DNA of 62,379 bases. Source: an uncultured archaeon (lineage in GTDB: Archaea; Iainarchaeota; Iainarchaeia; Iainarchaeales; JAAZKV01). The notes beneath the pieces are model-generated. The model saw only the letters and a list, made by a program, of their open reading frames with translations, made no database searches and was not told where the DNA came from. The stretch is from contig CAZOVD010000003.1 of NCBI GenBank assembly GCA_964583285.1, positions 1 to 62,379 on the forward strand, written 5' to 3'. The translations under genes and the position numbers were made by a program. Shown piece after piece: positions 8,959 to 48,802 of this stretch; within the stretch, counting starts at the first letter, position 1, and every line of letters starts with the position of its first letter.

Positions 8959-9131
8959 TTTATCACCAGTGTCAGTGCGAACACTTAAATTAAAATCCGC
9001 GTGACTAACAAAATTAGGAAAGGAAATTTTTTTAAATGGATTATGCAAAACCAAATAATTGGTTAAATTTGCTTAATATTGCTAATATTACATAATAAAA
9101 AAGTTAGAATATAAAGAATAAGCAAATATTA

Positions 9132-13909: not shown

Positions 13910-14422
13910 TCACCATGGAACTTTTTTTAGTTTTAATTTAAATGCAAATAAGTTGGAATATTTATGAACAAAAAAAGTAATAAATAGCAATATTATTATA
14001 ATTTCTATCTCAGGAATTCTCACAATTAAGCTAAATAATAATCCACCAATAATGAAATCTACTTGGTCAAATATGAGCCATTTTTCCCCTCTTTTAAGCC
14101 CAATTCTTCTTTTAAAAAAACTTTCAACTATATCACCAAACATAGCACCAAAAGATAACAAAAATGCAAGTGCAAAATAATTAGGGATTAAAGTATTTAT
14201 TTGAAAAAAAAATGAAAACAAAGTTCCTGCAAATGTTCCTGCTATTATACCAACCATTGTTCCAAGTATTGACTTACCATCACCAAGAATTCTTTTTTGA
14301 TTAAATTTTAAATTAAAATCAAGTGGAATTTTTCCATGAAGAAAGACTGGTGAAGAGTTTGATATATATAATGGAATAACATATGCAAAAAAAATCAAAA
14401 AAAAAGTATAATCTAAATACAT
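13910..14422 (-). CDS. carS: CDP-archaeol synthase
   Basis: DUF46/CarS pattern: NSSPVF..., ILGDGKSILGT, FGDIVESFFKRRIGLKRG, IFDQVDF. The ATG is preceded by GTGAT-ATT. Confidence 0.8.
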   Translation of the reverse strand: MYLDYTFFLIFFAYVIPLYISNSSPVFLHGKIPLDFNLKFNQKRILGDGKSILGTMVGIIAGTFAGTLFSFFFQINTLIPNYFALAFLLSFGAMFGDIVESFFKRRIGLKRGEKWLIFDQVDFIIGGLLFSLIVRIPEIEIIIILLFITFFVHKYSNLFAFKLKLKKVPW

Positions 14423-14434
14423 AATATCACTAAT

Positions 14435-21604: not shown

Positions 21605-21677
21605 TTATATCACTCTTATTTTTTTATAAAAATTGTTATCCAAAAGGAATATAAAACGAAAAAAATATAATTTATAC

Positions 21678-22106
21678 ATGGTTTTAACTCGTAAAAAACA
21701 ATTTAGGCCAAGAAGAATTGCTCGAACTAAAGAAGAAATTTTACGAATTAAAAAACGAGCAATGTCAAGAAAATCTAATTTTGTTAAAAAACGAAATGAA
21801 CTTTTAGTTAACTTAGATAAATCAGTTATGGGTTTTAAATCAGTTCTTGAAATTTTATTAAAAGAAGAAAAAGGAAGTAATAAAATATATACTAAAGATT
21901 TTTTAAATTCTTCAAAAAATTCATTACTTAATTCTTTAAGTTTTATGCGAGAAAATGCTGATAAATATAAATTTGGAGAAGTCCAAATTAGAAGTATTTT
22001 AATTTTTGAAAATAAATTATCCAATGCAAACACCCTTGGCGAACTTAATTTGGCTTTTGATTATTTTTACAGCAGAAGCTGTATGCTTAAGCTTTCAAAA
22101 AGATAA
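21678..22106 (+). CDS. hypothetical basic protein (142 aa) encoded antisense to the dnaK-dnaJ spacer
   Basis: ATG at 21678 (the track start at 21633 is a TTG). The composition looks protein-like, unlike the opposite-strand ORF 21605-22033. A hairpin plus T-run follows the stop. Confidence 0.45.
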   Translation: MVLTRKKQFRPRRIARTKEEILRIKKRAMSRKSNFVKKRNELLVNLDKSVMGFKSVLEILLKEEKGSNKIYTKDFLNSSKNSLLNSLSFMRENADKYKFGEVQIRSILIFENKLSNANTLGELNLAFDYFYSRSCMLKLSKR

Positions 22107-22113
22107 AAAAATT

Positions 22114-22146
22114 AACTAGCAAACCACATTGATTCGCTAGTTTTTT
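22114..22146. terminator. bidirectional hairpin terminator between the 142-aa ORF (+) and dnaK (-)
   Basis: AACTAGC-15 nt-GCTAGTT followed by TTTT on the plus strand. The reverse complement is also followed by a T-run. Confidence 0.5.
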
Positions 22147-22178
22147 CAATATCTAAAATTTTTTCATCTTTTATATTT

Positions 22179-24044: not shown

Positions 24045-24085
24045 ATTTAACCACCTTTTAAATTTAATTTTTTTATTTTTAAAAA

Positions 24086-24697
24086 TTAATTTTCCTCCAT
24101 TTCATTTTTTTTATTAATATCACTATTTAATTTTGACTTTTCATCATCAATTTCATTTTCAGTTTTTTCTTTAATAGATTCGTCTTTTTTATTAATACTT
24201 ATTTTTACTGTCCTAAGTATTTTTCCTTTTAACATATATCCTGTTGAAAGAACTTGTGCAACAACTCCTTCATCTAAATCTTTAACTGATTCTTGCATTA
24301 AACAATCCATTTTATTATGATCAAATTCATCCCCAACATTAACATGCATTTTTTCAAGCCCGTTCTTTTTGAGAATTGAATAAACTTGTTCATAAACACT
24401 AACAAATTCTTTGTTGTGTTTTATTCCCATTTCTAAAGAATCAAGAACTGGTAATAAATCTGAAATTAAATTTGCACTTGCAAGTTCTTTAAATTCATTA
24501 TTTTCTTTTTGTGTTCTTTTCCTATAATTTTCAAACTCTGCACCAAGCCTTTTAATGTCATTTACAAGTTCATTAATTTTAATATCCTTTTGAGCATTTT
24601 CATCAATCTCATCATTTTTACTATTATTTATTATTTTTTCTATTTTTACTTTATTTTCTTTATTTTTTTTATCTTCAACAATATTTTCTTTTTCCAT
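24086..24697 (-). CDS. grpE: nucleotide exchange factor GrpE
   Basis: [12 protein letters not shown], a C-terminal beta domain, and position upstream of dnaK. Confidence 0.85.
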
Positions 24698-34928: not shown

Positions 34929-35927
34929 ATGAAGGGTGCTTTTGACAATAATAAATATTTAAAACTTGAAAAAAAAATACTTTTAAAAAGAGCGAATAAA
35001 TTTAACACTTTATTTTTAGAAATTGGTGGACATTTGCTTTATGATGGGCACGCAAAAAGAGTGCTACCAGGATATGACCCAAAAAATAAATTGAATTTAA
35101 TTAAATCTTTGAAAAAAAAAGTTGGAGTAATTTATTGTGTTAGTGCTAAAGAACTTGCATTAAATAGAAATTGGGGAAATTCTAATAAAAAAATTAAAGA
35201 TGTTGCTCTTTTTGAATTAAAAAAATTATCAAAGGATTTAGAAATTATTGGGATTTGTATTAGTTTGTTTAATAACCAAAAAAAAGCAATTGATTTCGCA
35301 TTAACTGCTAGTGAAAAATTTTTAGTTCCAATATATTTTACAAGCATAATAAAAGATTACCCTAATTTAAAAACAACTTTTTCAAAAAATGGTTTTGATA
35401 TTCAACCCAAATTAAAAACTAAGAAAAAGATTGTTGTTGTTACTGGCGCTGGCGCAAATAATGGAAAATTATTTTTTTGTTTAAGTCAAATTTATCATCA
35501 AAACAAAGAAAATAAAAATGCAGGTTTTGCAAAAATTGAAACTTTTCCAGTTTGGGATTTAGATGTAAATCATCCACTAAATTTAGCTTACATGAGTGCT
35601 ACTGCTGATATTAAAGACAAAGTTTTAATAGATCATTTTTACAAAAAGAAATACAAAAAAATAGTAGTAAATTATAACAGAGATATTAAAGCATTTCCAG
35701 TTTTAAAAAAAATAATAAATAAATTAAGCAAAAAGAATAATTTTATGAATAATTATAATTCTCCGACAGAAATGGGTTTAAACGCACTAAGTAGTGGGAT
35801 TATTGATGAGAAAAAAATAGAAAGTGCTTGTAAAAAAGAAATCATAAACAGGAAAAAATCTTTTTTAAAATTAAAAAATAAAATGGCGGTAAAAGAAATA
35901 AATAATTTATTAAAAAAATTAAATTAG
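34929..35927 (+). CDS. DUF1846 (UPF0371)-like protein, short form
   Basis: FDNNKYLKLEKKILLKR...LFLEIGGHLLYDGHAKRVLPGYDP matches the DUF1846 N-terminus. It is 332 aa from ATG 34929, versus roughly 500 aa as I recall for typical members. Confidence 0.5.
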   Translation: MKGAFDNNKYLKLEKKILLKRANKFNTLFLEIGGHLLYDGHAKRVLPGYDPKNKLNLIKSLKKKVGVIYCVSAKELALNRNWGNSNKKIKDVALFELKKLSKDLEIIGICISLFNNQKKAIDFALTASEKFLVPIYFTSIIKDYPNLKTTFSKNGFDIQPKLKTKKKIVVVTGAGANNGKLFFCLSQIYHQNKENKNAGFAKIETFPVWDLDVNHPLNLAYMSATADIKDKVLIDHFYKKKYKKIVVNYNRDIKAFPVLKKIINKLSKKNNFMNNYNSPTEMGLNALSSGIIDEKKIESACKKEIINRKKSFLKLKNKMAVKEINNLLKKLN

Positions 35928-36391
35928 AGTTTTTTATAAACTTCAGTTTCACCAAATCTGCTTAACACGGTAAATCCTAATTTTTTATATGTTTTATGCC
36001 CCATTAGTACTGATTTTGCTTGAACATAACTAACTCCTTTTTTCTTTAAAATTTTTAAAACATTTTCAAGCATTTTTGAATAAAGTCCACTAACTCGTTC
36101 ATTTTCAACTATGCTTGGCCAATCAATAAAAGCATCTAAAAAATTACCAGTTTTTCTTAAATTGACCCTCATTTCTCCAATTTTTTCTTTTTGGGAATTT
36201 AATAATTCTATTTCATATCTATTTTTTTCTAAGACAAAATTAATTGTTTGAATATATCTTTTTCCATTAATATTTATTATTCTCAAAGTAGCCTTAGGAT
36301 TCGCTGTTTTTTTTGGTTTTATTTTTCTTAACAAAACTGCCTTTGATTTTTGTTTTGAATTTAATAAAGGGATTGTATTTTTTTTAATCAT
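35924..36391 (-). CDS. small basic protein with a GNAT-like C-terminal half (155 aa)
   Basis: Its ATGA start overlaps the phosphomevalonate kinase stop. IGEMRVNL...ERVSGLYSKMLENVLKILKKKG...HKTYKKLGFTVL resembles GNAT motifs A/B. Paralogous in pattern to ORF 37518-38000. Confidence 0.4.
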   Translation of the reverse strand: MIKKNTIPLLNSKQKSKAVLLRKIKPKKTANPKATLRIININGKRYIQTINFVLEKNRYEIELLNSQKEKIGEMRVNLRKTGNFLDAFIDWPSIVENERVSGLYSKMLENVLKILKKKGVSYVQAKSVLMGHKTYKKLGFTVLSRFGETEVYKKL

Positions 36392-37503
36392 TCTAAGTAA
36401 ACACCTTCCTTTGAAATATTTGCGTTTATTAAGTATATATTATTTATTTTCCATTCTTTTTCAATTAATTTTTTTGTTTCTTTATTAAAACTAATAGCAA
36501 TCCCACAATCTCCTCCCCCTGCCCCAGAAAATTTTCCAGCCCCGCCAAACTTTTCTGCAATGTTAGAAAGTAGTGTTAGTTCAGCAGTTTCTAAATTATT
36601 ATTACTTTTGTCATTTAGTTCTTTTAAAAATATTCTATTTTTTTTAAGCAAGTCAATTATTAATTCTTGATTTCCTAATCTAATAGCATAAATTAACTTC
36701 GTAGTTATATTTTTTATTTCATTTATTAAATTATTATAATCTACTAAATTTTTTTCTTTAAATTCTTGTATTTTTAAAACTAATTCTTTTGTTGATGCAC
36801 TATAGCCAACAAAACCAATACTTAAAAAAAAATCTTTTGGTAAATCTATTTTTTCTACTTTAAAATATGGCCAATTCATTTCAACTATTTCTTTTATTAA
36901 AAAAGTTTCATTTAATTTTTTGGTTATAACTTCCATGTCTGGTTTTTGATAAACTATAACTCCGCCATAAGTAGAAGCTGCAACATCAAAGCTACTTCCA
37001 AGTTTTCCTTGTGCAAAATAATGTGCAATACAACCTAACTTATAAATTATTTCTTTTGATTTGTTTGATTCTATTTCAAAGTTATGAATTTTGAGTACTG
37101 CTGCAACAGTTGCAGTAACTATTGCTGCACTTGAACCAAACCCAACTTTTGCTTTTTTATTTTCACCAATATCAATTTGAGTGTCACTTGAATTTGTTTT
37201 AATTGAAAAATTTCTTACTTTTATATTGTTTTCAGTCAGATATAATAATGTTGTTTCAACTGATTTTGTTACAAATAAATAAAATGCCTTTTCATTTTCA
37301 CTCCCAAATGTTTCTAATTTATTATTTTTAAAAACAGCTTTTAATTTTAAATCATTAGAACTTGTAGAAAAATTTATTTCTCCATTTTCTTTTATTTCTA
37401 CACTTACTTTTTGGTCAATTGCCATTACAATGCATGGCACATCATTTTCAAGAACACTCCATTCTCCTGAAAGCATTAACTTTCCAGGCGCACTAATTTT
37501 CAT
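36388..37503 (-). CDS. mvaK2: phosphomevalonate kinase (ERG8/bacterial mvaK2 type)
   Basis: APGKLMLSGEWSVLE, GHMP motif GFGSSAAIVTA, and SGAGGGDCGIA near the C-terminus. ATG 37503 has GGAG upstream. Confidence 0.85.
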   Translation of the reverse strand: MKISAPGKLMLSGEWSVLENDVPCIVMAIDQKVSVEIKENGEINFSTSSNDLKLKAVFKNNKLETFGSENEKAFYLFVTKSVETTLLYLTENNIKVRNFSIKTNSSDTQIDIGENKKAKVGFGSSAAIVTATVAAVLKIHNFEIESNKSKEIIYKLGCIAHYFAQGKLGSSFDVAASTYGGVIVYQKPDMEVITKKLNETFLIKEIVEMNWPYFKVEKIDLPKDFFLSIGFVGYSASTKELVLKIQEFKEKNLVDYNNLINEIKNITTKLIYAIRLGNQELIIDLLKKNRIFLKELNDKSNNNLETAELTLLSNIAEKFGGAGKFSGAGGGDCGIAISFNKETKKLIEKEWKINNIYLINANISKEGVYLE

Positions 37504-37517
37504 ATAAACTATCTCCT

Positions 37518-38000
37518 TCAAATAATTTTTTTTCTTGATTTTCTAATATTGCTAATTATTTTTTTTCTTATTAATTTTAACCCCTTCTTTTGAGAATAAC
37601 CTTTTTTTATTTCTCTTCCTAATAATCCTCTTTTTTTTAATTGTTTTACTCTATTATTCATAATATCCGTTGAATGTTTTATTTTAAAATCAGGATATTT
37701 TATTCTTGTAGCAAGTAAAAATTTTCTTTCAAGGAGCGTAGCAAGTCCAATATTTCTTGCGTTTGTTCCTAAATTTACTATTGGTTCATATAAAGACCAT
37801 TCTAGTTTTTTTTCTTCTTTATTCACTTTTATTTCCATTCTGCCAACTGGATCTCCATAAGCGAATTTTTTAAGCAATTCATTTATTTTTTCACTGGTAA
37901 CAAAGTTATTTGTATTCTTTTGACCATAAGCAGTATTTAAATTAGCAACAAAATTTTGGCCTCTTTCTAAAAAGGTTATTTTTATTCCTTTATTTTCCAT
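37518..38000 (-). CDS. small protein with a GNAT-like core and a Lys/Arg-rich tail (160 aa)
   Basis: ATG 38000 lies 5 nt after the MDD stop (TGAtttttATG). VGRMEIKV...ARNIGLATLLERKFLLA...NRVKQLKKRGLLG aligns in pattern with ORF 35924-36391. Confidence 0.4.
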   Translation of the reverse strand: MENKGIKITFLERGQNFVANLNTAYGQKNTNNFVTSEKINELLKKFAYGDPVGRMEIKVNKEEKKLEWSLYEPIVNLGTNARNIGLATLLERKFLLATRIKYPDFKIKHSTDIMNNRVKQLKKRGLLGREIKKGYSQKKGLKLIRKKIISNIRKSRKKII

Positions 38001-38005
38001 AAAAA

Positions 38006-38995
38006 TCAAAATAAATGTTTATCTACGATTCTTGGGCCTGTCCCTGGTTTACATTCAATTATTTCATTTACGCCAATGCTATTTAATTCTTTTTTTAAAA
38101 ATTCAACATCTTTTTGTTGACAAATTATCTTTGCTTGTGGGCCGCCATCAATTGTGAAATAAGCTTCAATACCTTGATCTTGTAATTCTAAAATTTTATG
38201 AATTACTTCAATAGTGCCTGCTTGCCAATAAAATATACTTGGTCTTGTTGTCATTGCACACGCATGCATTAAAATACAGTTATCTTGTGCAAGTCTTCCA
38301 AGTTCTTTAAAATTTTTTTCTTTTATTAATTCAACCATTTTTTTTGCGTCTTTTTCTGCTTCTTGATACCATGTCTTAAAAATTGGCGAAGTTTCTACAC
38401 TTTGTTTCATACCTGCTCTTGACTTTACTTTTTTTTGTTTTTTTGATATTACACAACCAAGTATTCTAAATTCTGGCCAATGTTCTTTTGGTTTTATTTG
38501 CTCTGCAAAACTACTTTCGCTTGTTTCTCCACTATGCCATATTGCAAACCCATCAATTAAACTTCTAGAAGCACTTCCACTACCCATTCTTGCTAAAATA
38601 CTTAGTTCTTTTGTTGAAAGATTAAGTCCAATAGCTTTACTTGCAGCAAAAGTTAGTGCGGCAAGCCCTGATGCGCTTGAGGCAAAACCAGCAGCAGTAG
38701 GAAAATTATTTTCACTAACTGTTTTTGCTTTTGTATTAATATTAGCTTTTTTTCTAATAATATTTAATTGTTCTACTACTTCATCATATTCAGCTTGTCC
38801 TTTAAAATATTCTTTTTTATCAAGAATAAAAATATCTTCTTTGTATTTATCACTAAACTCAACAGTTGTTGTTGTTTCTAAACCTTCAAGAGTAACACTA
38901 GTATTTGAATTCCAAGGGGTTTTAAGTCCATCATTTTTTTTGCCCCAATATTTTGTTAATGCAATATTAGCATTTGCTTTTACTGTTACTTTCAT
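38006..38995 (-). CDS. mvaD: diphosphomevalonate decarboxylase
   Basis: ANANIALTKYWGKKN, GFASSASG, GSGSASRS, TIDGGPQ. ATG 38995 follows GGGTGAT, which contains the MVK stop codon. Confidence 0.85.
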   Translation of the reverse strand: MKVTVKANANIALTKYWGKKNDGLKTPWNSNTSVTLEGLETTTTVEFSDKYKEDIFILDKKEYFKGQAEYDEVVEQLNIIRKKANINTKAKTVSENNFPTAAGFASSASGLAALTFAASKAIGLNLSTKELSILARMGSGSASRSLIDGFAIWHSGETSESSFAEQIKPKEHWPEFRILGCVISKKQKKVKSRAGMKQSVETSPIFKTWYQEAEKDAKKMVELIKEKNFKELGRLAQDNCILMHACAMTTRPSIFYWQAGTIEVIHKILELQDQGIEAYFTIDGGPQAKIICQQKDVEFLKKELNSIGVNEIIECKPGTGPRIVDKHLF

Positions 38996-38999
38996 AAAA

Positions 39000-39935
39000 T
39001 CACCCAATTGTTGTTAATGTAACTTCATAGCCTGCCTTTTTTATTTTTTTTGCTACAGCTTCTTGAAGTTCTTTTGTAGGGGTTAGTGCAATTACACTAC
39101 CGCCCCTGCCCGTCCCAGTTAGTTTGGCACTTATTGCACCAGCTTTTTTTGCATCATCAATAATATTTTCAAGTAAGTCACTTGAAACATTTATTTTTCT
39201 TAAAAGTTCTTGATTCTTTTCCATCAATTCTGCAATTTTTTCTATATTAAAATTAGCAATTGCAATTTTCGCTTCTTGAACAATTTTTTCATACTCATTC
39301 AAAATTTTTGCAAATTCTTCTTCATCTGCTTCTTTTAATTTTCTTACATCATCAACTACTTCTTTTGTAAGCGCTGCTTTACCAGAATTTATTAAAACTA
39401 TTTCTAGAGGTTTTTTTATTTTAAGCGACTCAATTTTGTTTTCTTTGCCACTTAAATTTTTTTGAAAAATTAAGAATCCGCCATATGCTGCGCAAGTATT
39501 GTCTATTCCACTAGGCGTTCCGCTTCCTGCAGTTTCTCCAGCATATGCTGCGTTATTTATTTCTTCCTTACTTAAATTCAAATTAAATTCTTCACTTATT
39601 GCTTCACTTATTGCTACGGCCGCAGCAGCACTTGCTCCAACACCACTAGCGGGAACTAAATCTCCACTAAGTGTTATTTTAACTTTTTCCTTTATATTTA
39701 AATAATTTAAAATTGCTTTTATTATATTATCATATTCTTCTTTTTTCTTTATTTTATAATCGCCATTATCTGGCCTATTATCAATTAATTCATATTCAAA
39801 GGGTTTGTTTTTTTCTAAAATTTCAACTTCGCAAATAGTTTTTTGACCCAAAGCACAAGGTATTCCTGGTAAACCATATACTACAAAATGTTCTCCAAAT
39901 AGGATTGTTTTTCCAAATCCACTGCCTTTTCCCAT
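39000..39935 (-). CDS. mvk: mevalonate kinase
   Basis: GKTILFGEHFVVYG, GVGASAAAAVA, TPSGIDN, KLTGTGRGGSVIAL. ATG 39935 follows GGTGA-AACAA. Confidence 0.9.
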   Translation of the reverse strand: MGKGSGFGKTILFGEHFVVYGLPGIPCALGQKTICEVEILEKNKPFEYELIDNRPDNGDYKIKKKEEYDNIIKAILNYLNIKEKVKITLSGDLVPASGVGASAAAAVAISEAISEEFNLNLSKEEINNAAYAGETAGSGTPSGIDNTCAAYGGFLIFQKNLSGKENKIESLKIKKPLEIVLINSGKAALTKEVVDDVRKLKEADEEEFAKILNEYEKIVQEAKIAIANFNIEKIAELMEKNQELLRKINVSSDLLENIIDDAKKAGAISAKLTGTGRGGSVIALTPTKELQEAVAKKIKKAGYEVTLTTIG

Positions 39936-40023
39936 TTGTTTCACCAAAAATATAATAAGATTGAATTAAATAATGTTTTTAATTACTTTGAATTAAAAAT
40001 AAAGATAAATTTTGTTTAAATAG

Positions 40024-40422
40024 TTAAAATTTTAAAATAAATTTTGTTCCATAATGGATTGCGCCCTTCTCTCCACTTTTATAAAATTTTCTAAAAACAG
40101 CTTCAACCTTAGCTCCAACTTTTAAATCTTCAAATTTACAATCAACTACTTGTCCAGTAATTCTTGCACCATCTTCAAGATCAATTATTGCAACAAGATA
40201 GGGTGCTTGGCTTTCAAATGCAGTTGGACCAGAATGAATTTGCGTGAATGATACTATACTGCCTTTTCCATTTGATTCAAATTCACTAAATTCAAGTGAC
40301 CCACAAACACACATTCCTTTTCTTTCAAAATAAACTTTATCACAATTAACACATTTATATGATGTTAATCTGTAACGATCTGAATAATTCCTCCATCTTA
40401 TTATTGGACTATCACGAAACAT
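40024..40422 (-). CDS. DUF35 OB-fold/zinc-ribbon protein (thiolase/HMG-CoA synthase complex partner)
   Basis: Zinc ribbon (CVNCDKVYFERKGMCVCG) plus an OB-fold. 132 aa, downstream of the thiolase. Confidence 0.8.
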   Translation of the reverse strand: MFRDSPIIRWRNYSDRYRLTSYKCVNCDKVYFERKGMCVCGSLEFSEFESNGKGSIVSFTQIHSGPTAFESQAPYLVAIIDLEDGARITGQVVDCKFEDLKVGAKVEAVFRKFYKSGEKGAIHYGTKFILKF

Positions 40423-40575
40423 TTTATCTCACTTTCCTAAAAACATGAACTACTGCAGTTGCTCCACTTGCACTTTTTGTCGCTGATGCGTCAAAACCTG
40501 CACTAAAAATGCTACGCAATAAAATCATTTTATCTCACTTTCCTAAAAACATGAACTACTGCAGTTGCTCCACTT
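40420..40575. repeat. 50-bp perfect direct repeat (40420-40469 and 40526-40575) with a 56-bp unique spacer
   Basis: cattttatctcactttcctaaaaacatgaactactgcagttgctccactt occurs twice with a 106-bp period. Confidence 0.9.
40424..40528 (-). pseudogene. 34-codon stub ORF ending with the thiolase C-terminus (MILLRSIFSAGFDASATKSASGATAVVHVFRKVR)
   Basis: Its last 14 codons, stop and downstream TAAAATG junction are nucleotide-identical to the 3' end of the intact thiolase gene. It carries the same RBS context as DUF35. Confidence 0.6.
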
Positions 40576-41687
40576 CCACCAACATTATGTGTTATCCCAA
40601 CTTCTGCATTTTTTACTTGTCTTTTATTTGCTTCTCCGCGTAGTTGCATTGTTGCTTCTATTGCTTGTTTTACTCCAGTTGCTCCAACTGGGTGTCCACA
40701 TGCTTTAAGTCCACCACTAGTATTTACTGGGTGTTTACTATCAAAATAAGTTTCTTTATTTTCATATAATTTATACGCTTCTCCTTTTTTTGCAATTCCA
40801 AGTGCTTCTGTAGCCATTATTTCTGCAATTGTAAAACAATCATGTACTTCTGCAAAATCAATGTGTTGTGCAGTTATTCCTGCTTGAGAATATGCTACTT
40901 CGGCCGCTTTTTTTCCAGCAGGTATTTCATATAAACTTTTTCTTCTTGCAAGTGACAAAGTATCATTTGCAAGACCTGAACCAGTAATAAAAACATCAGT
41001 TCCAAGTTTTTTTGAAACTTTTTCGCTTGCAAGTATTATTGTCGCACTTCCATCAGTTATTGGAGAGCAATCAAAAAGTGTTAATGGATTTGCAACCATT
41101 GTTGCATTTTTTACTGTGTCAATTGTTATTTCATTTTTGAATTGACAATAAGAGTTTCTTGCTCCGTGAAAGTGATTTTTTACTGCTACTTCTGCTAAAA
41201 GGTCTCTTGTTAATTTTGGAAATTCAAACATGTAAGCATTTGCCATTAATGCATAAAGTCCTGGAAAAGTTAAACCATTAAATCCCTCAAGTTCTTCATC
41301 CCCAGCACCCATCAGTGCAGTTGTTACTGCGCCAGTATCAACGTCAGTCATTTTTTCTATACCATTAACCATTGCAATATCTACTTGGCCTGCTTCTATT
41401 GCATGAACCGCTTGGCGTATTGCAAGACCCCCGCTAGCACAAGCACCTTCAACTCTTATACTTGGTTTATCTAAATTTAAATTTTCTGCAGCCATTGCAC
41501 CTAAGTGAAGTTGTCCACTAAGTGGCCCGCTTGCCATATTTCCAGTATAAATCGCATCAATTTGTTCTGGTGCGATTTTTGCATCATTAAGCGCATTAAG
41601 TTGTGACTCAAGGAGTAATTCTCTTAATCCTTTATTCCAAATTTCTCCAAATTGAGTTATTCCTATGCCAAGAATACCAACTTTCAT
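40530..41687 (-). CDS. acetyl-CoA C-acetyltransferase (archaeal-type thiolase)
   Basis: Active-site Cys region (VEGACASGG) and C-terminal GHPVGATG...NVGGSG. Length is 385 aa. Confidence 0.9.
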   Translation of the reverse strand: MKVGILGIGITQFGEIWNKGLRELLLESQLNALNDAKIAPEQIDAIYTGNMASGPLSGQLHLGAMAAENLNLDKPSIRVEGACASGGLAIRQAVHAIEAGQVDIAMVNGIEKMTDVDTGAVTTALMGAGDEELEGFNGLTFPGLYALMANAYMFEFPKLTRDLLAEVAVKNHFHGARNSYCQFKNEITIDTVKNATMVANPLTLFDCSPITDGSATIILASEKVSKKLGTDVFITGSGLANDTLSLARRKSLYEIPAGKKAAEVAYSQAGITAQHIDFAEVHDCFTIAEIMATEALGIAKKGEAYKLYENKETYFDSKHPVNTSGGLKACGHPVGATGVKQAIEATMQLRGEANKRQVKNAEVGITHNVGGSGATAVVHVFRKVR

Positions 41688-41797
41688 AATATCAACTCCG
41701 CTCTATCGATCCCAAAGGCGAAGATAGTGCTTTTGCCAACCTTAACAAGGTTGTCTTCGAACTGCGTAATGCCAATTCCTAAAACTCCAACTTTCAT
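41684..41797 (-). pseudogene. 37-codon stub ORF beginning with a thiolase N-terminus (MKVGVLGIGITQFEDNLVKVGKSTIFAFGIDRAELIL)
   Basis: The first 13 codons give 12/13 aa and 28/39 nt identity to the intact thiolase start, and most differences are synonymous. Its TGA overlaps the thiolase ATG (ATGA). Confidence 0.55.
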
Positions 41798-41802
41798 AAA
41801 AA

Positions 41803-42072
41803 TCAATTATTTCCTTTTTTCTTTTTTCCAAATCCTTTTATTCCATCATAACCCTTTGCAAATTTTGGATTATAACCTACCTTTGTGCCACTATCCCTAA
41901 CTTCCATTTGAAGTTTGTATTCTGGTCTTATTTTTGACATTTCAATTAATCTTTTTTCCATTGCTGCAACTTTACTCGCATCAACCATTCCACTTTTAGA
42001 ACCCTTAAATCCACCAACTTCAACTCTTGCAACAACATGTTTTTGTCTGTTTCTTCTTATAGGCCCAACCAT
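41803..42072 (-). CDS. hypothetical basic protein (89 aa) between HMG-CoA synthase and thiolase
   Basis: AAAGGTGA sits 5 nt upstream of ATG 42072. Translation begins MVGPIRRNRQKHVVARVEVGGFKG and ends GFGKKKKGNN. No motif recognised. Confidence 0.55.
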   Translation of the reverse strand: MVGPIRRNRQKHVVARVEVGGFKGSKSGMVDASKVAAMEKRLIEMSKIRPEYKLQMEVRDSGTKVGYNPKFAKGYDGIKGFGKKKKGNN

Positions 42073-42083
42073 AAAATTCACCT

Positions 42084-43121
42084 TTAGTGTATCTCTTCCA
42101 TGTGTTTTAAATATTTTGCATATGAAATGTATTCTTTTCTTTCTATATAATCATTAACTGTTTTTGCTTTATTTTGAACTTCTTCAATTTTTTTTGTTGT
42201 TGTTAAAATAAATGCGTCACTACCACTACCACTTCCATAACTAACACAAAGAATTTTTTGATTTGCTTTTGCAATATCAAGCACTGCTGCAAGACCAAGA
42301 AGTGAACTTCCTGAGTAAGTATTTCCAATTTTTTTTACTACAAGGCCAGGCGCAAGTTGTTCTTTTGTTACTCCAAATTGTTTTCCAACTCTCTCAGGGA
42401 ATTTTCCATTTGGCATGTGAAAAACAACATAAGAAAATTCATCTATTTTCATATTACTTTTTTCAAGTATTAATTTTGTTGCACCACTCACGTGTTTAAA
42501 GTAAGCAGGGTCTCCAGTAAATCTTCCTGCGTGTGCTGGGTAAGGTTGTAATGCGCGTCTCCAAAAATCAGGAGTATCACTAGTATAAGATAAAGTGTAA
42601 TCAATTGTTGCTACTGATTCAGAATTATTTCCAATAATAAATGCTGCTCCGCCAGCTGCTGCACTATATTCAAGTGCGTTGCCTGGTTCTGCTTGAGAAG
42701 TATCTGCTCCAATTGAAAGACCATATTTTATCATTTTTGAATCAACTAACCCTGCATTAATTTGTATTGTAGCACTTCCTGCTTTACAAGCAAATTCAGT
42801 GTCTACTGCCATGTAATTATTTCCTATATTAAGCGCTTCAGCAACTATACTACTTGACGGTTTTACTGCATAAGGGTGAGATTCACTTCCAATATAAACT
42901 GCCCCAATTTCTCTTTTGTTTATGCCAGCTCTTGCCAGTGCATTTCTTGCTGCCATTGTTGAAATAGTAACTGTATCTTCATCTTTACCAGGAACTGATT
43001 TTTCAGTTAGTCCTAATCCTGCTTTAATTGCATTAGCATCAGCATTTTGTACTTGCGCAATACTTTCCGCAGTTATTCTATATTTTGGGATATATGCTCC
43101 AAAGCCAACGATTCCTGCCAT
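42084..43121 (-). CDS. hydroxymethylglutaryl-CoA synthase (archaeal type)
   Basis: Thiolase-fold condensing enzyme with FACKAGS (catalytic Cys), HMPNGKF and NTYSGS. ATG 43121 gives MAGIVGFGAYIP. Confidence 0.9.
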   Translation of the reverse strand: MAGIVGFGAYIPKYRITAESIAQVQNADANAIKAGLGLTEKSVPGKDEDTVTISTMAARNALARAGINKREIGAVYIGSESHPYAVKPSSSIVAEALNIGNNYMAVDTEFACKAGSATIQINAGLVDSKMIKYGLSIGADTSQAEPGNALEYSAAAGGAAFIIGNNSESVATIDYTLSYTSDTPDFWRRALQPYPAHAGRFTGDPAYFKHVSGATKLILEKSNMKIDEFSYVVFHMPNGKFPERVGKQFGVTKEQLAPGLVVKKIGNTYSGSSLLGLAAVLDIAKANQKILCVSYGSGSGSDAFILTTTKKIEEVQNKAKTVNDYIERKEYISYAKYLKHMEEIH

Positions 43122-43286
43122 TTTAACACACACTATTTTATTTTTATTAAATTAATTAAAAAAAATTTGTTTAATTTTTCTATATTTAGATTAAAATCTA
43201 ACTCTATATAAACCTTTCTTTACGCCGAAATAGATTTCGTCACTTGCCGAAAGAAGTATTTTATTCTTAAACAAAGTATATTATTT

Positions 43287-44117
43287 ATGCCTTTAAAAAA
43301 ACAAGTTAGAAGAAACACTACAAAAAAAAGAAGAAAATTTTCAAATCAATCTCGTTTAATGGCGGACGCAAGAATGCTTTCAAAAGGAATTAATACTTTA
43401 TACCAAGGAAAAATTGAAACTAACCCAAGTGAAAGATATGGTGCTAACGAAAGCCAAGTAGTATTAAAGAGAAGTTTAAAATCACAATTAAGATGTAAAA
43501 TTTCTAGTGCAATAGAAACTTCAAAAATCACAAAAAATCCATTAAAAATTATTAGTGCATTTATTAGAGAACAAAATATTGGAGAATATAGAAATGGGCC
43601 GGTAGCTGAAGAAGGTTATGAAAAAAGAGATAATGGTAGAATTAGAATTACAAAAAAAAAAGGAACATATTACAAAAATCGTAAAAAATATAGAGCTGCT
43701 TTAATGCATGAATTTTTTCATTCAACTCACATACCACCTAATGATGTCGGTGCACATGCATTTGAAAATTATCTTGAAAATAAATTAAATAAATCAAAAT
43801 TAAAAAGAACTTCTCAAGACATTGTTAATAGAGCAATTGCTCTTGAAATATTATTAAAAAAACTTAATGAAATGAAACTTGGAGAGTATGAAACAAAAAA
43901 CAAGATGTCTCCAGCAAAAGTTGGAGAAGAACTTGGAATTATTGCTAATGATATAGAACTTCAAACAGGAAAAAGAGGATCAGGGTTATTTTTTTTAAAA
44001 GAGATATTAATTGGAAAAAGCGCAACACACACTATTTCAAGAATTTCTAAAAATGAATTTGACAAAGAAATAAGAGCATGGCTTAAAATGAATCCAAGAC
44101 TTGCGAGGTTATTATAA
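43287..44117 (+). CDS. hypothetical basic protein with an HExxH motif (LMHEFFHSTH)
   Basis: 276-aa ORF with a Lys/Arg-rich N-terminus and an HEFFH motif at about residue 150. Its stop overlaps the next gene's ATG. Confidence 0.5.
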   Translation: MPLKKQVRRNTTKKRRKFSNQSRLMADARMLSKGINTLYQGKIETNPSERYGANESQVVLKRSLKSQLRCKISSAIETSKITKNPLKIISAFIREQNIGEYRNGPVAEEGYEKRDNGRIRITKKKGTYYKNRKKYRAALMHEFFHSTHIPPNDVGAHAFENYLENKLNKSKLKRTSQDIVNRAIALEILLKKLNEMKLGEYETKNKMSPAKVGEELGIIANDIELQTGKRGSGLFFLKEILIGKSATHTISRISKNEFDKEIRAWLKMNPRLARLL

Positions 44118-44902
44118 TGCAAAAAAATAAAGTCACACAAGGTTTAAAATTTAACGAAAAATTTGGAAAAATGAATTTTGGAGAAAAACGAAGTAAAGTG
44201 AGAAATGATCTTGCGCAAAGAATTAGAAGTTCAAGATTTGTTGATAGACATTCTGGTTGGGAAGTTAGAAGAAGTTTATTAAAATATCAAACAATGCTAA
44301 AAATTGATTTTGGATTATTATTGACAAATATGCTAAAAAAACATAAAAGGTTAAGAGTTCTTGATATTGGTTGCGGAGCAGGTTATTTTTTAAATGAATT
44401 AAAAAATTTTGATAGGAAAAGAATTGAAACTCACGGCATAAGAACAACTTTAAATGGATCCCCCTATCTAGGAGATGTTGAAAAATTAGATAAAGAAATG
44501 ACAAAAAAAATGGACTTGCTACACATAGGGAGTTTTGAAAATTATAAATTTAAAACAAAGTTTAATATTATTGTTTCTACGATTGGGAGCGTTTACACTG
44601 CAAGTCAAGCACACACCATACAAAAAATTTGTTCGCTTCTTGAAGTTGGCGGAGTTAGTGCAATAATAATTCCAAAAAAAGGAGTTTCAAAATCTTTACT
44701 AAATGAAATAACAAAAACAGGTTATAAAATAAAAGTTGAAACTAAACAAGTTAGAAAAAGAAATGGTGAAATTGATAGATTAAGAATTTTAAAAATAAGA
44801 AAAACTACTAATAGTGTTCCAAATTTAAGTAATTTTATTTTAAAAGAAATAAATAAAGGAATAGATGTTACTGTAAACCCAAGAATTGCTGAATTTTCTT
44901 AA
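44117..44902 (+). CDS. class I SAM-dependent methyltransferase
   Basis: Motif I is RVLDIGCGAGYFLNEL, and the spacing of later motifs fits a Rossmann-like fold. Confidence 0.7.
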   Translation: MQKNKVTQGLKFNEKFGKMNFGEKRSKVRNDLAQRIRSSRFVDRHSGWEVRRSLLKYQTMLKIDFGLLLTNMLKKHKRLRVLDIGCGAGYFLNELKNFDRKRIETHGIRTTLNGSPYLGDVEKLDKEMTKKMDLLHIGSFENYKFKTKFNIIVSTIGSVYTASQAHTIQKICSLLEVGGVSAIIIPKKGVSKSLLNEITKTGYKIKVETKQVRKRNGEIDRLRILKIRKTTNSVPNLSNFILKEINKGIDVTVNPRIAEFS

Positions 44903-44908
44903 AAAATA

Positions 44909-46210
44909 TTATTTTCTTATTTTTTTAATTATTTTTTCCGCACTACTTTGCGAAACGTTTTTTTCTTCAAGCATTTTTTTTACAACTTCATTAATTTCAC
45001 TTTCTTTTGCACCTGCCTGAAAAGCAATATTTTTTGCATGAAGTTTCATATGTCCTTCTTGAATACCACTACTAACAAGTGCTCTAAGTGCTGCAAAATT
45101 TTGAGCAAGACCAACGCTAGCAATAATACTTGCAAGTTCACTAGCTGATTTTACATTAAGTATTTTTAAATTCATTTGAGCAAGTGGGTGAATTTTTGTC
45201 ACGCCGCCTATAGTTCCAATAGCAAGAGGAATATCTATTTCGCCAACTAAATCACCATCTTTATTCTTGTAAAATTTTGTAAGTGGCGAATATTTTTCTT
45301 CAAATGCACTAAATGCGTGTGCGCCCGCTTCTATCGCACGAAAATCATTTCCAGTTGCAATTACTACTGCATCAATTCCATTCATTATCCCTTTATTATG
45401 TGTTGCGCATCTAAAAGGAGAACTAACTGCAAATTCATAAGCATCAAGAATTCTTTCTATTACTTTTTCACCACTTAAAAGTCCTTTTGTACTTTCTTGC
45501 AAAATGTTTTTTTTCCAAATTGTTTTTGCTTGTGCTCGTCTATAAATTGCTAGATTTGATAATATTTTTAATAAAACTTCACCATTAGAATATTCTTCTA
45601 TTTTTGGAGCTATTTTTTCAAGCATGGTATTTATTGCATTTGCACCCATTGCATCTTTTACATCAACCAGTATTTTAACATCAAGCATTTCTCCCCTTTT
45701 TGTTTTTAATATTTCAATAGTTAAGTCGCGTGGACCTCCCCCAGCTTTTATTAAATTAGATTCTTTATTAATTAATGAATTTAATATTTCTTTTTTATTT
45801 TTTAAAATATTTTCTTTGGCTATTTTTGTATTTTTACATTTAATAACTTGTAATTGACCTATCATTATTGAATCATCAACATTTGTTATAAATCCGCTTG
45901 AAAGTTTTGCTGCGTTGCTTGCAGCTGCAACCACACTAGCTTCTTCTATAACAAATGGAACTATATAGTCTTTTCCATTAATATTAAAATTGGTTGCAAC
46001 ACCAAGAGGAAGTGAAAAATTGCCCACTACATTTTCTATCATTTGATTAGCAGTTTCTAGTTTTAAAGAGCCTTCTTTATTTAGTAAACTAACTTCAACA
46101 TCGGTTAAACTAAATTCTTTTTTAAGTAAATTCTGTCTTTCTAAAATATTTTTTTTGTAAAAACCTTCAAAATTTTTTTTATTTATAAAATCACCTAAAA
46201 CTCTTCCCAA
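44909..46210 (-). CDS. mvaA: HMG-CoA reductase, class II
   Basis: ENVVGNFSLPLGVATNFNINGKDYIVPFVIEEASVVAAASNAAK, DAMGANAIN, and about 430 aa in length. No in-frame ATG occurs near the 5' end: there is a TTG at 46210 and an ATA at 46186. Confidence 0.85.
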   Translation of the reverse strand: MGRVLGDFINKKNFEGFYKKNILERQNLLKKEFSLTDVEVSLLNKEGSLKLETANQMIENVVGNFSLPLGVATNFNINGKDYIVPFVIEEASVVAAASNAAKLSSGFITNVDDSIMIGQLQVIKCKNTKIAKENILKNKKEILNSLINKESNLIKAGGGPRDLTIEILKTKRGEMLDVKILVDVKDAMGANAINTMLEKIAPKIEEYSNGEVLLKILSNLAIYRRAQAKTIWKKNILQESTKGLLSGEKVIERILDAYEFAVSSPFRCATHNKGIMNGIDAVVIATGNDFRAIEAGAHAFSAFEEKYSPLTKFYKNKDGDLVGEIDIPLAIGTIGGVTKIHPLAQMNLKILNVKSASELASIIASVGLAQNFAALRALVSSGIQEGHMKLHAKNIAFQAGAKESEINEVVKKMLEEKNVSQSSAEKIIKKIRK

Positions 46211-46386
46211 CTTTTTAATAATTGCATTGCTTCTTTTGGATTTCTTTTATATACTCTTCTAAAATCAGCTAAATAATTTACATCAAACCTTTGTAAAACA
46301 TATTGTTCTAATTTACCAACTGCCCCCTTTTTTGCGAGTGGTAATTTTTTTTTCATTAAGTTAACTTTTTTCTTAACAATTGGCAT
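46195..46386 (-). CDS. hypothetical small basic protein (63 aa) overlapping the HMGR 5' end
   Basis: The start context is GTGAT-ATT-ATG. Translation begins MPIVKKKVNLMKKKLPLAKKG. The stop lies inside the AGGTGA upstream of the HMGR coding region. Confidence 0.5.
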   Translation of the reverse strand: MPIVKKKVNLMKKKLPLAKKGAVGKLEQYVLQRFDVNYLADFRRVYKRNPKEAMQLLKSWEEF

Positions 46387-46412
46387 AATATCACTTCTTA
46401 AAAATAATTTTT

Positions 46413-46940
46413 TTATTTAGAAAATTTTTCTTTAACAATTTCCCACCCGGGATGAGTTATAATTATTTTAAACCACGCAGTATATTTTTTTGGATCATAA
46501 TAAATATCTTTCATTAATTCATCTACATTAATCCATTTATACTCGCTAACTTCATTAGGGTTTGGTTTTATTTCACCATCATAAACTCCAACAAATGTTT
46601 GATCCATTTCATATTCTGCTAAACCATTTAAAAATTCTGCATAATATGTAAATTTATAAAATGGAGTAAGTTCACATGAAAATCCCATTTCTTCAGGCAA
46701 TCTTCTTTTTGCAGCATCTAAATAAGTTTCGTTCATTCTTGGGTGTGTACAACAAGCATTTGTCCAAAGACCAGGGCAATGATATTTTGAATCAGCGCGC
46801 CTATGAAGTAGCATTTCGCCATTTTTATTAAAAATTAATACTGAAATTGCCCTATGTAACTTAGGGTTTTTATGTGCACTCATTTTTTCTTCTTTTCCAA
46901 CCACATTATCATTAAAATCTACAAGCACTACTTCTTCCAT
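46413..46940 (-). CDS. idi: isopentenyl-diphosphate delta-isomerase, type 1 (Nudix)
   Basis: LHRAISVLIFNKNGEMLLHRRADSKYHCPGLWTNACCTHP and a downstream E...E pair. AAGGAGAA sits upstream of the ATG. Confidence 0.85.
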   Translation of the reverse strand: MEEVVLVDFNDNVVGKEEKMSAHKNPKLHRAISVLIFNKNGEMLLHRRADSKYHCPGLWTNACCTHPRMNETYLDAAKRRLPEEMGFSCELTPFYKFTYYAEFLNGLAEYEMDQTFVGVYDGEIKPNPNEVSEYKWINVDELMKDIYYDPKKYTAWFKIIITHPGWEIVKEKFSK

Positions 46941-47007
46941 TTATATCAATTCTCCTTTAATAAAATAAAAATAATGTTATTTTAAAGTTTTTTAAAACAT
47001 AAAAAAA

Positions 47008-47691
47008 TTAAATTATTAATTCGCTACCATCTCCAAAAGCACTTTTTGATGCTAATTTATCTTTTTCTACAAAAGCATCATATTTTTTTCCCAGAACTAA
47101 TTTTGCATAACTACTTTCAAGATCCCCAAGCATCATAAGTAATACTCTATTAAGAATAATTGGCTTTGAACCATGAAGTGTAGTTGGAAGTAAAATGTGA
47201 TCTACTCGTTCAACTATTCCTGGATTATAATCAAGATCGTGTTTTGGGCCAGTTTGATTTTTCAAACTTGCATCAATACTTTTTTCAATCCAACTTACAA
47301 AATCTATTGATTTTGGATCACTTTTTTTATTAGATAAACCTTTTCCATGAATATCAATTAATAATTCTTTATTTCTTCTAACAAAATCTTTTATTTCAAG
47401 AGCTGCATTAAGCGAAACAACTTGACCTTGATATGCTTTCATGCCAGCCATTGCAAATGGCGTTATTTCACAAATTTTATCTATTTGAGCTTTGCTAAGT
47501 CCAAAAGCGGACAGTAATTTTTTTTTAGAACTAAGATAAACATTAAATCTTTGTTTAAAAAAAGAATGATCATTTAATCTCATAACTTGTACTCTTGATT
47601 TTTTCCCATGTTTGTTACGAACACTAAATATGTTTTTTTTAAATGGAGAAAATTTTTTCTTAACAGTATCCCACCATTTTTTTCCAACCAT
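47008..47691 (-). CDS. hypothetical protein (227 aa) between GGPP synthase and IDI
   Basis: ATG 47691 lies 1 nt after the GGPPS stop (the track start at 47709 is a TTG). It has a basic N-terminus (MVGKKWWDTVKKKF). No motif recognised. Confidence 0.5.
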   Translation of the reverse strand: MVGKKWWDTVKKKFSPFKKNIFSVRNKHGKKSRVQVMRLNDHSFFKQRFNVYLSSKKKLLSAFGLSKAQIDKICEITPFAMAGMKAYQGQVVSLNAALEIKDFVRRNKELLIDIHGKGLSNKKSDPKSIDFVSWIEKSIDASLKNQTGPKHDLDYNPGIVERVDHILLPTTLHGSKPIILNRVLLMMLGDLESSYAKLVLGKKYDAFVEKDKLASKSAFGDGSELII

Positions 47692-47692
47692 A

Positions 47693-48802
47693 TTAGATCT
47701 TCCTGTCAACTAAATATTCTGCAAATTTTTTTAAAATTAATTTGGCATTTGACTCTGGCAAAACACCATCCACTTCTTTCCAAGCGCTTTCAACTAATTC
47801 TTCTGCCTTTTTGCGCGAATAATCTATTCCATCATATTTATTTATTATGTTTAGTGCTTCTTTTATTTCACTTTCTTTTTCTGTGTGAGAATCAAGAATT
47901 TCTATTAATCTTTTCTTATCAGTAGGCGTTGCAACTTCAAGTGTTCTAATAACAATTAATGTTCTCTTGCCTTCATGGATATCTCCGCCTATACTTCCCT
48001 TACCTGCTTTAAATGAATCTTCAGTTAATTCTAATATATCATCTTGTATTTGAAAACCAACACCTACAATTTGACCAAAATTACCAAGCGCATCATATTG
48101 TTTTTCGTTTGCTTCACCAACTATTGCTCCAAGTTGACAAGCAAATTTTGTTAATACTCCTGTTTTACTTAAGCACATATTCAAATATTGTTTTTCATTT
48201 GGAGTAAATCCCCCATTATGCCAAGCAATATCCCAAACTTGTCCAGAACACACTCTTAACATTTCTTTTACGAAAAGATCATAAATTTTTAATTTTTTTT
48301 CATTTCCAAGATTAAAATCATCATTCATTATTTTTACTACTGGCCAGAAGTACATTATTGTGCCAGTGTTTACTGCAGTATCAACACCAAATATTTTATG
48401 AGTACAAGGTTTTCCTCTTCTTGCAGTTGAATCATCTTCAACATCATCTTGCATCAAAGTTCCATTATGAATAAGTTCTACTATTGGAGCTACTTTTAAA
48501 CCAGTTTTCCAAGTTCCACCAACTGCTTCACAAGTAATACAAGTTAAAATTGGCCTAAACCTTTTTCCACCCCTATCAAGTAAATCCCAAATTGGAGTGT
48601 TACATCCAGCATTATATGCCTCAATATCAAGCTCAAAAATAGTTTTTCCAAGAGCATTTTCTACCCATTTTTTACTAGCTTTTCGCGGAATAAAATTTTC
48701 CATTTCTTTATCAATTACTGGCGAATATTTTTTTAAAAATTCTTTAATTTCTAAATTTGTTTCCTCTTTACTAATCATAATAATATTTTCTATAAAACCC
48801 AT
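47693..48802 (-). CDS. idsA: geranylgeranyl diphosphate synthase (trans-polyprenyl synthase)
   Basis: First Asp-rich motif (LMQDDVEDDSTARRG), second Asp-rich motif (FQIQDDILE), and GKGSIGGDIHEGKRT. Confidence 0.85.
   Translation of the reverse strand: MGFIENIIMISKEETNLEIKEFLKKYSPVIDKEMENFIPRKASKKWVENALGKTIFELDIEAYNAGCNTPIWDLLDRGGKRFRPILTCITCEAVGGTWKTGLKVAPIVELIHNGTLMQDDVEDDSTARRGKPCTHKIFGVDTAVNTGTIMYFWPVVKIMNDDFNLGNEKKLKIYDLFVKEMLRVCSGQVWDIAWHNGGFTPNEKQYLNMCLSKTGVLTKFACQLGAIVGEANEKQYDALGNFGQIVGVGFQIQDDILELTEDSFKAGKGSIGGDIHEGKRTLIVIRTLEVATPTDKKRLIEILDSHTEKESEIKEALNIINKYDGIDYSRKKAEELVESAWKEVDGVLPESNAKLILKKFAEYLVDRKI

Follow-up and report, generated by a model that had tools for sequence, protein, structure and literature searches.

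A contiguous acetyl-CoA-to-prenyl-diphosphate gene cluster on a probable Iainarchaeota contig, and a possible same-slot exchange of its lower mevalonate pathway

How does an archaeal contig come to carry, side by side, the genes for a whole route from acetyl-CoA to prenyl diphosphate, and does the partly bacterial look of these genes point to an import or to a consolidation within the lineage? This question is raised by contig CAZOVD010000003.1 of assembly GCA_964583285.1, of which a stretch of 62,379 nt (hereafter the window) was analysed by listing its open reading frames (ORFs), followed by profile searches with Pfam and with the curated cut-offs of NCBIfam. These scans took in every distinct ORF of the window with 120 aa or more (56 in total), plus two shorter ones. 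Nine enzyme genes were found inside ~13 kb, all of them on the minus strand (Table 1) and all of them already listed in an initial annotation of this DNA, and catalytic or signature motifs are found in the enzymes they encode. Curated NCBIfam cut-offs are passed by seven of the nine; the remaining two are the DUF35 protein, which reaches one Pfam cut-off, and the prenyl synthase, for which only the general Pfam model is passed. The interval first assigned to the cluster, 35924-48802, does hold the pathway genes, but its start belongs to an ORF with a putative GNAT fold and not to a pathway enzyme.

We consider it very probable that these genes form a vertically maintained biosynthetic cluster of a DPANN archaeon, most likely a member of the Iainarchaeota (formerly Diapherotrites), leading from acetyl-CoA to the prenyl diphosphate of archaeal ether lipids. 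In this pathway, an archaeal complex of thiolase, 3-hydroxy-3-methylglutaryl-CoA (HMG-CoA) synthase (HMGCS) and DUF35 would condense three acetyl-CoA into HMG-CoA while channelling acetoacetyl-CoA, after which a class II HMG-CoA reductase (HMGR) would produce mevalonate. Mevalonate kinase (MVK), then a GHMP-type phosphomevalonate kinase (PMK), then diphosphomevalonate decarboxylase (MDD) would lead to isopentenyl diphosphate by the classical, eukaryote-type route, with no need for isopentenyl phosphate kinase (IPK). A Nudix-type isopentenyl-diphosphate isomerase (IDI-1) would supply dimethylallyl diphosphate, and the prenyl synthase would elongate to geranylgeranyl diphosphate (GGPP) or a somewhat longer product. 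CarS, encoded 22 kb away in the window, would act in the later CDP-archaeol steps. As for its history, an upper scaffold of prenyl synthase, IDI-1, class II HMGR, HMGCS, thiolase and DUF35 is common to close relatives, and the lower module that follows DUF35 appears exchangeable. The classical cassette would be old in the lineage and drawn from a sequence pool of DPANN archaea, Candidate Phyla Radiation (CPR) bacteria and Asgard archaea, instead of being a recent Gram-positive import.

Table 1. Pathway genes and other features of the window; profile scores are followed by the cut-off of the model, and L084 is a related locus described in the text.
Feature	Position (nt)	Strand	Profile score or remark
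trans-prenyl diphosphate synthase (GGPP synthase-like)	47693..48802	-	PF00348 222 (cut-off 27)
Type 1 (Nudix) isopentenyl-diphosphate isomerase, IDI-1	46413..46940	-	TIGR02150 132.5 (cut-off 105.8); NF002995 157 (cut-off 127)
Class II HMG-CoA reductase	44909..46210	-	TIGR00532 433 (cut-off 260)
Archaeal-type HMG-CoA synthase	42084..43133	-	NF003274 524 (cut-off 244); TIGR00748 480 (cut-off 353)
Archaeal-type acetoacetyl-CoA thiolase	40530..41687	-	NF004720 502 (cut-off 420)
DUF35 scaffold subunit (zinc ribbon and OB fold)	40024..40422	-	PF01796 66.9 (cut-off 27.1); PF12172 22.7
Mevalonate kinase (MVK)	39000..39947	-	TIGR00549 220.5 (cut-off 163)
Diphosphomevalonate decarboxylase (MDD)	38006..39007	-	TIGR01240 280 (cut-off 171)
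GHMP-family phosphomevalonate kinase (PMK)	36388..37521	-	TIGR01220 235 (cut-off 166)
155-aa putative GNAT-fold protein	35924..36391	-	overlaps PMK stop by 4 nt (translationally coupled); no Pfam match
163-aa ORF	37518..38009	-	fills ~490-nt insertion between MDD and PMK; no Pfam or NCBIfam match
276-aa ORF (inserted pair)	43287..44117	+	no Pfam match; 53-55%-identical copy in L084
SAM-dependent methyltransferase (inserted pair)	44117..44902	+	PF13847, PF13489; 62%-identical copy at the same place in L084
233-aa ORF between prenyl synthase and IDI-1	47008..47709	-	overlaps synthase stop by 17 nt; no Pfam match
CDP-archaeol synthase CarS (later lipid step, outside the cluster)	13910..14422	-	PF01864 131 bits; NF003114 170 (cut-off 148)

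The cluster as a whole had been described as of classical bacterial type, and for the first steps of the pathway this description has to be dropped. HMGCS reaches 480 bits with the archaeal equivalog model TIGR00748 and only 137 with the bacterial model TIGR01835, well below its cut-off of 360. The thiolase carries the motifs CASG (residue 83), HDCF (282) and GHP (331), corresponding to CxS, HDxF and GHx, of which HDxF is described in PMC12960953 for the ACATs that form part of the HMGS/ACAT/DUF35 complex in archaea, and DUF35 has a CxxC...CxC zinc ribbon formed by Cys24, Cys27, Cys38 and Cys40. Judged by these models and motifs, the three proteins are the archaeal trio and not of bacterial type. 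The three neighbouring genes HMGCS-thiolase-DUF35, the archaeal HMGCS equivalog, the HDxF motif and the combination of zinc ribbon and OB fold predict a channelling complex like the one of thiolase, HMG-CoA synthase and DUF35 in other archaea (Vögeli et al. 2018, in the form in which PMC12960953 cites it). The locus differs in that HMGCS and thiolase are parted in the window by a spacer of 396 nt (41688-42083) containing a 92-aa ORF with a GTG start (41803-42081); by inspection, this ORF has no visible resemblance to the small ORFs of related loci.

The reductase that would follow was called class II from the start, and rightly so, as it passes TIGR00532 and fails the class I model TIGR00533 (49, cut-off 442). 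Its best structural match is the class II enzyme of Pseudomonas mevalonii (1qax, 378 bits), and it contains the motifs ENVVG, DAMGAN, GTIGG and GHMKLH. That TIGR00532 bears the name 'degradative', together with this closest structural relative, could suggest that the cluster is partly catabolic or regulatory, with a degradative reductase as in P. mevalonii. We find this highly improbable, since HMG-CoA lyase is not present, since the neighbours of the reductase (HMGCS, thiolase, MVK, PMK, MDD, IDI and prenyl synthase) all point to biosynthesis, and since PMC11052028 Table S3 records class II HMGRs for many lineages of archaea. Because of this same table, the premise of the initial annotation that most archaea use class I HMGR was too strong. 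The isomerase passes TIGR02150, in keeping with its assignment as a Nudix-type IDI-1, and aligns to the type 1 structures 3hyq and 1i9a. Its motifs are LHRA, TNACCTHP and EYEMD, the latter two being aligned in 3hyq to WTNSVCGHP and ENEVC, respectively; presumably the Cys, Glu and His residues of these motifs have the active-site roles of those in the E. coli IDI.

For the lower pathway, the earlier calls of PMK and MDD stand, as both pass their NCBIfam models. The PMK has GHMP motifs I-III in the form of GKL, GFGSSAA and SGAGGGDCGIA, the last of which, already singled out in the initial annotation, spans residues 332-342. It scores 144 bits against the Listeria structure 3k17 and 69 bits against the S. 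pneumoniae PMK 1k47, and fails the Sulfolobales-type model NF040957 (94, cut-off 500). The decarboxylase scores best with the E. faecalis MDD (5v2l, 253 bits). We must however take into account that MDD and phosphomevalonate decarboxylase (PMD) are often misannotated (PMC3857490; PMC11052028), and that the enzyme might in reality be a PMD, with an IPK encoded elsewhere and the presumed PMK being another GHMP kinase. In line with this, the Anaerolinea PMD 6n0z (200 bits) outscores the S. epidermidis MDD (193 bits), and a Lys is found nine residues after the conserved Tyr, where PMDs have Arg. This is the sole position that resembles a PMD, however, and it varies between genuine bacterial MDDs as well as inside the enzyme's own family. 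When judged against Table 4 of PMC3857490 (Dellas et al.; numbering on the 333-aa ORF), Tyr20 and Lys23 of KYWGK, Ser143 and Ser145 of GSGSASRS (142-149) and Ser196 of KSRAGM (195-200) fit the MDD-type signature, with the catalytic Asp lying within TIDGGP. As such, the decarboxylase of the window is predicted to be of the 5-diphosphate type, MDD and not PMD. Furthermore, TIGR01240 is passed and the PMD model NF040704 is not (171, cut-off 475), an equivalog-passing PMK is encoded one ORF (490 nt) downstream in the window and directly adjacent in relatives, and Ca. Iainarchaeum is listed without IPK in PMC11052028 Table S3. Taken together, we regard the combination of PMD and IPK as very unlikely. 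Among the scanned ORFs of the window there is no match to AA_kinase (the amino-acid-kinase family that includes IPK), AcnX, UbiD or UbiX, which agrees with the earlier remark that no IPK-like gene is visible, and the predicted classical MVK/PMK/MDD route is complete within it.

At the other end of the cluster, the name GGPP synthase is plausible but was given too precisely: PF00348 clearly supports a polyprenyl synthase (222 bits), while no chain-length-specific NCBIfam model reaches its cut-off, the best being IdsA_Meth with 259 against 468. The best structural match is the GGPP synthase of Pyrococcus horikoshii (1wy0, 175 bits). The first Asp-rich motif is DDVED, preceded at -5 by a Gly where the P. 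horikoshii enzyme has its chain-limiting Tyr, while DDILE takes the place of DDxxD in the second. The length of the product is uncertain, because both the Gly at -5 and DDILE are conserved in the clade, being kept in the prenyl synthases of the related loci L084, L085 and L086. The L086 gene (1-1507) bears an intein, its 829-aa product having matches to Hint, Intein_splicing and LAGLIDADG. CarS directly adjoins a DUF92/TIGR00297 membrane protein in the window (13910-15124, minus strand). As this family includes VTE6 of plants, a phytyl-phosphate kinase, a kinase for prenyl-phosphate salvage might be encoded beside CarS.

Where, then, does the MVK-MDD-PMK cassette come from? Its likeness to the mvaK1-mvaD-mvaK2 operon of Gram-positive bacteria had been pointed out, and the order indeed matches that of Bacillota loci, e.g. 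L012, L016-L018, L021 and L037. A recent acquisition of the whole 13-kb cluster en bloc from such a bacterium would further be in line with the PMK being described best by TIGR01220, a 'Gram-positive' model that it shares with the Bacillota enzymes, with a class II HMGR and type 1 IDI as in many bacteria that use the mevalonate (MVA) pathway, with the best solved structures being bacterial, and with Flavobacteriia (53-58% identity) being among the nearest IDI-1 relatives beyond its own clade. The identity to the Gram-positive cocci and other Bacillota is only 26-46%, however, the Bacillota MDDs compared from a genome collection reaching at most 46% among the matches listed, and the cassette is linked to HMGCS, thiolase and DUF35 of archaeal type, with the 163-aa ORF standing between MDD and PMK. 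The closest PMKs (60-72% identical) and MDDs (70-82%) are metagenomic proteins that, where named, belong to a Candidatus Diapherotrites archaeon or Candidatus Iainarchaeum sp. The next-nearest MDDs are from Aenigmatarchaeota (55%) and CPR bacteria (51-52%), the next-nearest PMKs (42-53%) include Diapherotrites- and Hodarchaeales-named proteins, and the genome-collection search gave no relative above 55% identity among the matches listed. An exact match to the PMK ORF of the window was found in no contig.

Rough neighbour-joining trees (corrected p-distances, with bootstrap) point in the same direction. MDD falls in a fully supported (100%) Iainarchaeota clade within a DPANN and CPR group (68%), PMK groups with Diapherotrites and Hodarchaeales (74%) and then with Micrarchaeota, and MVK with Nanoarchaeota and Aenigmatarchaeota (94-100%). 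The IDI-1 forms its own clade, with a mix of Woesearchaeota, Flavobacteriia and Parcubacteria as next neighbours, and the HMGR tree is without resolution (support of 24-64%). A Gram-positive source of MVK, MDD and PMK thus finds no support in these trees, which set them among DPANN, CPR and Asgard homologues. Furthermore, the GC content at third codon positions (GC3) lies between 0.118 and 0.165 for every gene of the cluster, indistinguishable from the other 42 genes (0.087-0.191, mean 0.129, standard deviation 0.023), and the cluster is kept at 60-87% identity in relatives whose flanking genes diverge to a like degree. We therefore hold en-bloc import, one of the two histories suggested in the initial annotation, to be very improbable as a recent event. 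Two further loci with MDDs 45-50% identical to that of the window, L007 and L009, are labelled as metagenome-assembled genomes of Gammaproteobacteria and Pseudomonadales; L007 has archaeal-type HMGCS, thiolase and DUF35, and L009 has DUF35. The taxonomic labels of both look doubtful.

The other history, a consolidation specific to the lineage, is the one that the synteny of close relatives bears out. In L085 (JGI 3300068291), the gene order is identical to that of the window (prenyl synthase, IDI-1, HMGR, HMGCS, thiolase, DUF35, MVK, MDD, PMK and the 155-aa ORF), the flanks correspond as well, with NFACT_N and PRC-barrel on one side and DUF1846 and His_Phos_1 on the other, and the enzymes are 65-87% identical. 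L084 (Logan SRR30872637) has the same order, including the pair of plus-strand genes, and L003 shows partial synteny, with HMGR, HMGCS, thiolase, DUF35, a methyltransferase, two MVKs, a HAD-family gene, MDD and PMK. Because the same order recurs in these independent assemblies, the clustering is not due to chance. IDI-1 genes that are 62% (L087) and 61% (L088, with a Woesearchaeota-named protein) identical lie outside any MVA cluster, so that the consolidation including IDI-1 is confined to the close clade.

The mixed look of an archaeal upper trio next to a bacterial-looking lower cassette might also arise if the contig were a bacterial/archaeal chimera of assembly or binning. The cluster lies, however, on a single contiguous sequence of uniform composition (27% GC); PolD, Orc1, S3Ae and CarS are encoded to one side of the cluster, NFACT and a DHH-family (DHH/DHHA1) phosphoesterase to the other. 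Profile scans confirmed PolD DP1 and DP2, Orc1/Cdc6, SepF, S3Ae, S15 and CarS among the flanking genes, whose archaeal character had been recognized before. Moreover, L085, from another sample and another assembler, reproduces both junctions, that of NFACT_N with the prenyl synthase and that of PMK, the GNAT-fold ORF, DUF1846 and His_Phos_1. The presence of the same cluster in independent assemblies therefore effectively rules out a chimera, to which we assign a negligible probability, and makes the consolidation a property of the lineage. GC3 at the level of the contig background, along with the cluster and flanks shared between independent assemblies, speaks against chimera and recent import alike.

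A further relative, L086 (GCA_964534045.1), adds a different aspect to this history. Its upper genes are readily recognized as those of the window, with identities of 84% for the prenyl synthase, 74% for IDI-1, 63% for HMGR, 85% for HMGCS, 84% for thiolase and 76% for DUF35. The slot behind DUF35 is occupied by a divergent MVK, followed by UbiX (TIGR00421, 200 bits), UbiD (TIGR00148, 325 bits) and the large and small subunits of AcnX. These predicted UbiX, UbiD and AcnX genes are hallmarks of the archaeal lower pathway. The MVK of the window is 75-76% identical to those of L084 and L085 and 44% identical to that of L086. Since the upper genes are shared and the lower ones are not, the lower pathway behaves as an exchangeable cassette. 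In a neighbour-joining tree of concatenated HMGCS, thiolase and DUF35, the topology is (L003,(L086,(window,(L084,L085)))), with 100% bootstrap support for the inner clade of four, and the MVK of L086 clusters with 'MVKa', the extra copy in L003 (73%). L086 thus lies within the classical-type clade while its MVK sides with the extra one of L003, which suggests that MVK moves along with the lower module, through exchange or differential loss within the lineage. We see an evenly balanced chance that one family-level lineage of Iainarchaeota has a conserved upper scaffold that carries either MVK-MDD-PMK or MVK'-UbiX-UbiD-AcnX in the same slot.

The MVK genes of L003 are located in tandem (7176-9169), one of them being of the window type (61% identity) and the other (35%) grouping with the MVK of L086. 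These two MVKs match the entry 'MVK 2' for Ca. Iainarchaeum in PMC11052028 Table S3, and the two types could be the relic of an ancestor with both routes.

Several considerations weigh against the reading of a vertically maintained, complete biosynthetic cluster. Every reaction step has been assigned by homology or family membership. The scans covered the window, and a gene for IPK, AcnX/UbiD, GGGPS, DGGGPS or G1PDH may be located elsewhere in the genome. The assignment to Iainarchaeota, which we consider most likely, is based on the names borne by homologues of the pathway enzymes themselves. The trees had a limited taxon sampling, without eukaryotes or Sulfolobales, and several of their deep nodes have less than 70% support. 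Moreover, the prenyl synthase, with its Gly at -5 and DDILE as second motif, does not follow the archaeal GGPP synthase rule, in which two Asp-rich motifs go along with an aromatic residue at -5 that limits the product to C20; the -5 part of this rule reportedly comes from mutagenesis of the Sulfolobus enzyme. Lastly, two opposite-strand genes and gaps of 153-396 nt break up the cluster, for which reason it is not a single operon.

Besides the pathway enzymes, the cluster interval has five other ORFs (35924-36391, 37518-38009, 43287-44117 and 44117-44902, both on the plus strand, and 47008-47709). The first of these, of 155 aa, belongs to a small family, with 15 matches at E <= 0.001 including itself among 1.8 billion representatives, 12 of the 15 being about 150-180 aa long. 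Its AlphaFold2 (AF2) model has a pLDDT of 84, and in a Foldseek comparison the top matches in the PDB are GNAT acetyltransferases and GNAT-fold toxins (TM 0.5-0.65). An orthologue with 30% identity follows PMK in L085. Possibly, the protein uses acetyl-CoA and has an accessory role in the pathway. The 163-aa ORF has no counterpart in L003, L084 and L085, where MDD and PMK are spaced by 10-25 nt, no homologue, and no paralogue in the window; its single-sequence AF2 model is uninformative (pLDDT 53), and hhalign gives a probability of 1.2% against the GNAT-like family. The plus-strand pair (43287-44902) between HMGR and HMGCS is present in L084 and absent in L085 and L086. L003 and L001 have other, unrelated methyltransferases within the cluster, and L085 has them next to it. 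No homologue of the 233-aa ORF is found in the related loci.

Farther out, two long ORFs of the window, one of 953 aa (17553-20414, minus strand) and one of 1265 aa (50807-54604, plus strand), are without Pfam match. The latter sits in the stretch with the lowest GC content (~18.5%), and an ORF of 1245-1264 aa, also without Pfam match, is found at the corresponding spot beside the cluster in L084 and L085. A chaperone cluster of DnaJ, a 142-aa ORF, DnaK and GrpE (20474-24697, minus strand) is followed by a winged-helix regulator on the other strand. Scans of the 62-kb window for tRNA and Rfam families came out empty, without rRNA or tRNA.

How much of this is new? The cluster is mostly ordinary, in that it looks functional and its gene complement is already on record for the group. 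MVK/PMK/MDD sets in some DPANN archaea, and class II HMGR in DPANN, Asgard and TACK archaea, were reported by Hoshino and Gaucher (PMC6107057, 2018), and a survey from 2024 (PMC11052028) finds the complete classical pathway in some DPANN archaea as well as in Sulfolobales. In its Table S3, Ca. Iainarchaeum GCA_000402355 is listed with one HMGS, one HMGR2, two MVKs, one IDI1, one PMK and one DMD, with no IPK and no AcnX, and two other Iainarchaeota genomes with an AcnX/AMPD/IPK set, i.e. both pathway types occur in Iainarchaeota. The window has the same complement of HMGS, class II HMGR, MVK, PMK, MDD and IDI-1, and no IPK or AcnX/AMPD is seen in these 62 kb, so that the gene set is less notable than the initial annotation held. 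With this complement already in a published table for Ca. Iainarchaeum, and with a discussion of classical DPANN pathways that dates back to 2018, little is gained from the cluster itself. It differs in that the published table gives counts only, whereas the window shows the physical linkage of all steps and a prenyl synthase in 13 kb, and in having one MVK where two are listed, as in L003. Sulfolobales are likewise archaea with MVK, PMK and MDD, but their HMGR is of class I, their isomerase is IDI-2 and IPK is mostly kept (PMC11052028 Table S3), in contrast to the class II HMGR and IDI-1 of the window, and their PMK model is the one that the window PMK fails. As to the archaeal-type MVA pathway, with AcnX, a UbiD-type decarboxylase and IPK, its AcnX, UbiX and UbiD occupy the same cluster slot of L086 and were not found in the window. 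Within the limited set of papers searched, we found no description of the physical supercluster or of an exchange in the same slot, and the latter may be new.

For the biology of these organisms, the cluster would mean that members of this DPANN lineage, some of them at least, are able to synthesize isoprenoid precursors themselves, which bears on the question of their host dependence. The greater interest lies in the comparison of loci: the proposed cassette exchange, if true, would offer two naturally occurring, closely matched forms in which to study the reasons and the ways by which variants of the mevalonate pathway replace one another. Near-identical scaffolds with either a classical or an archaeal lower pathway would make a clean system for this question, which touches on the debate about how the eukaryote-type pathway arose.

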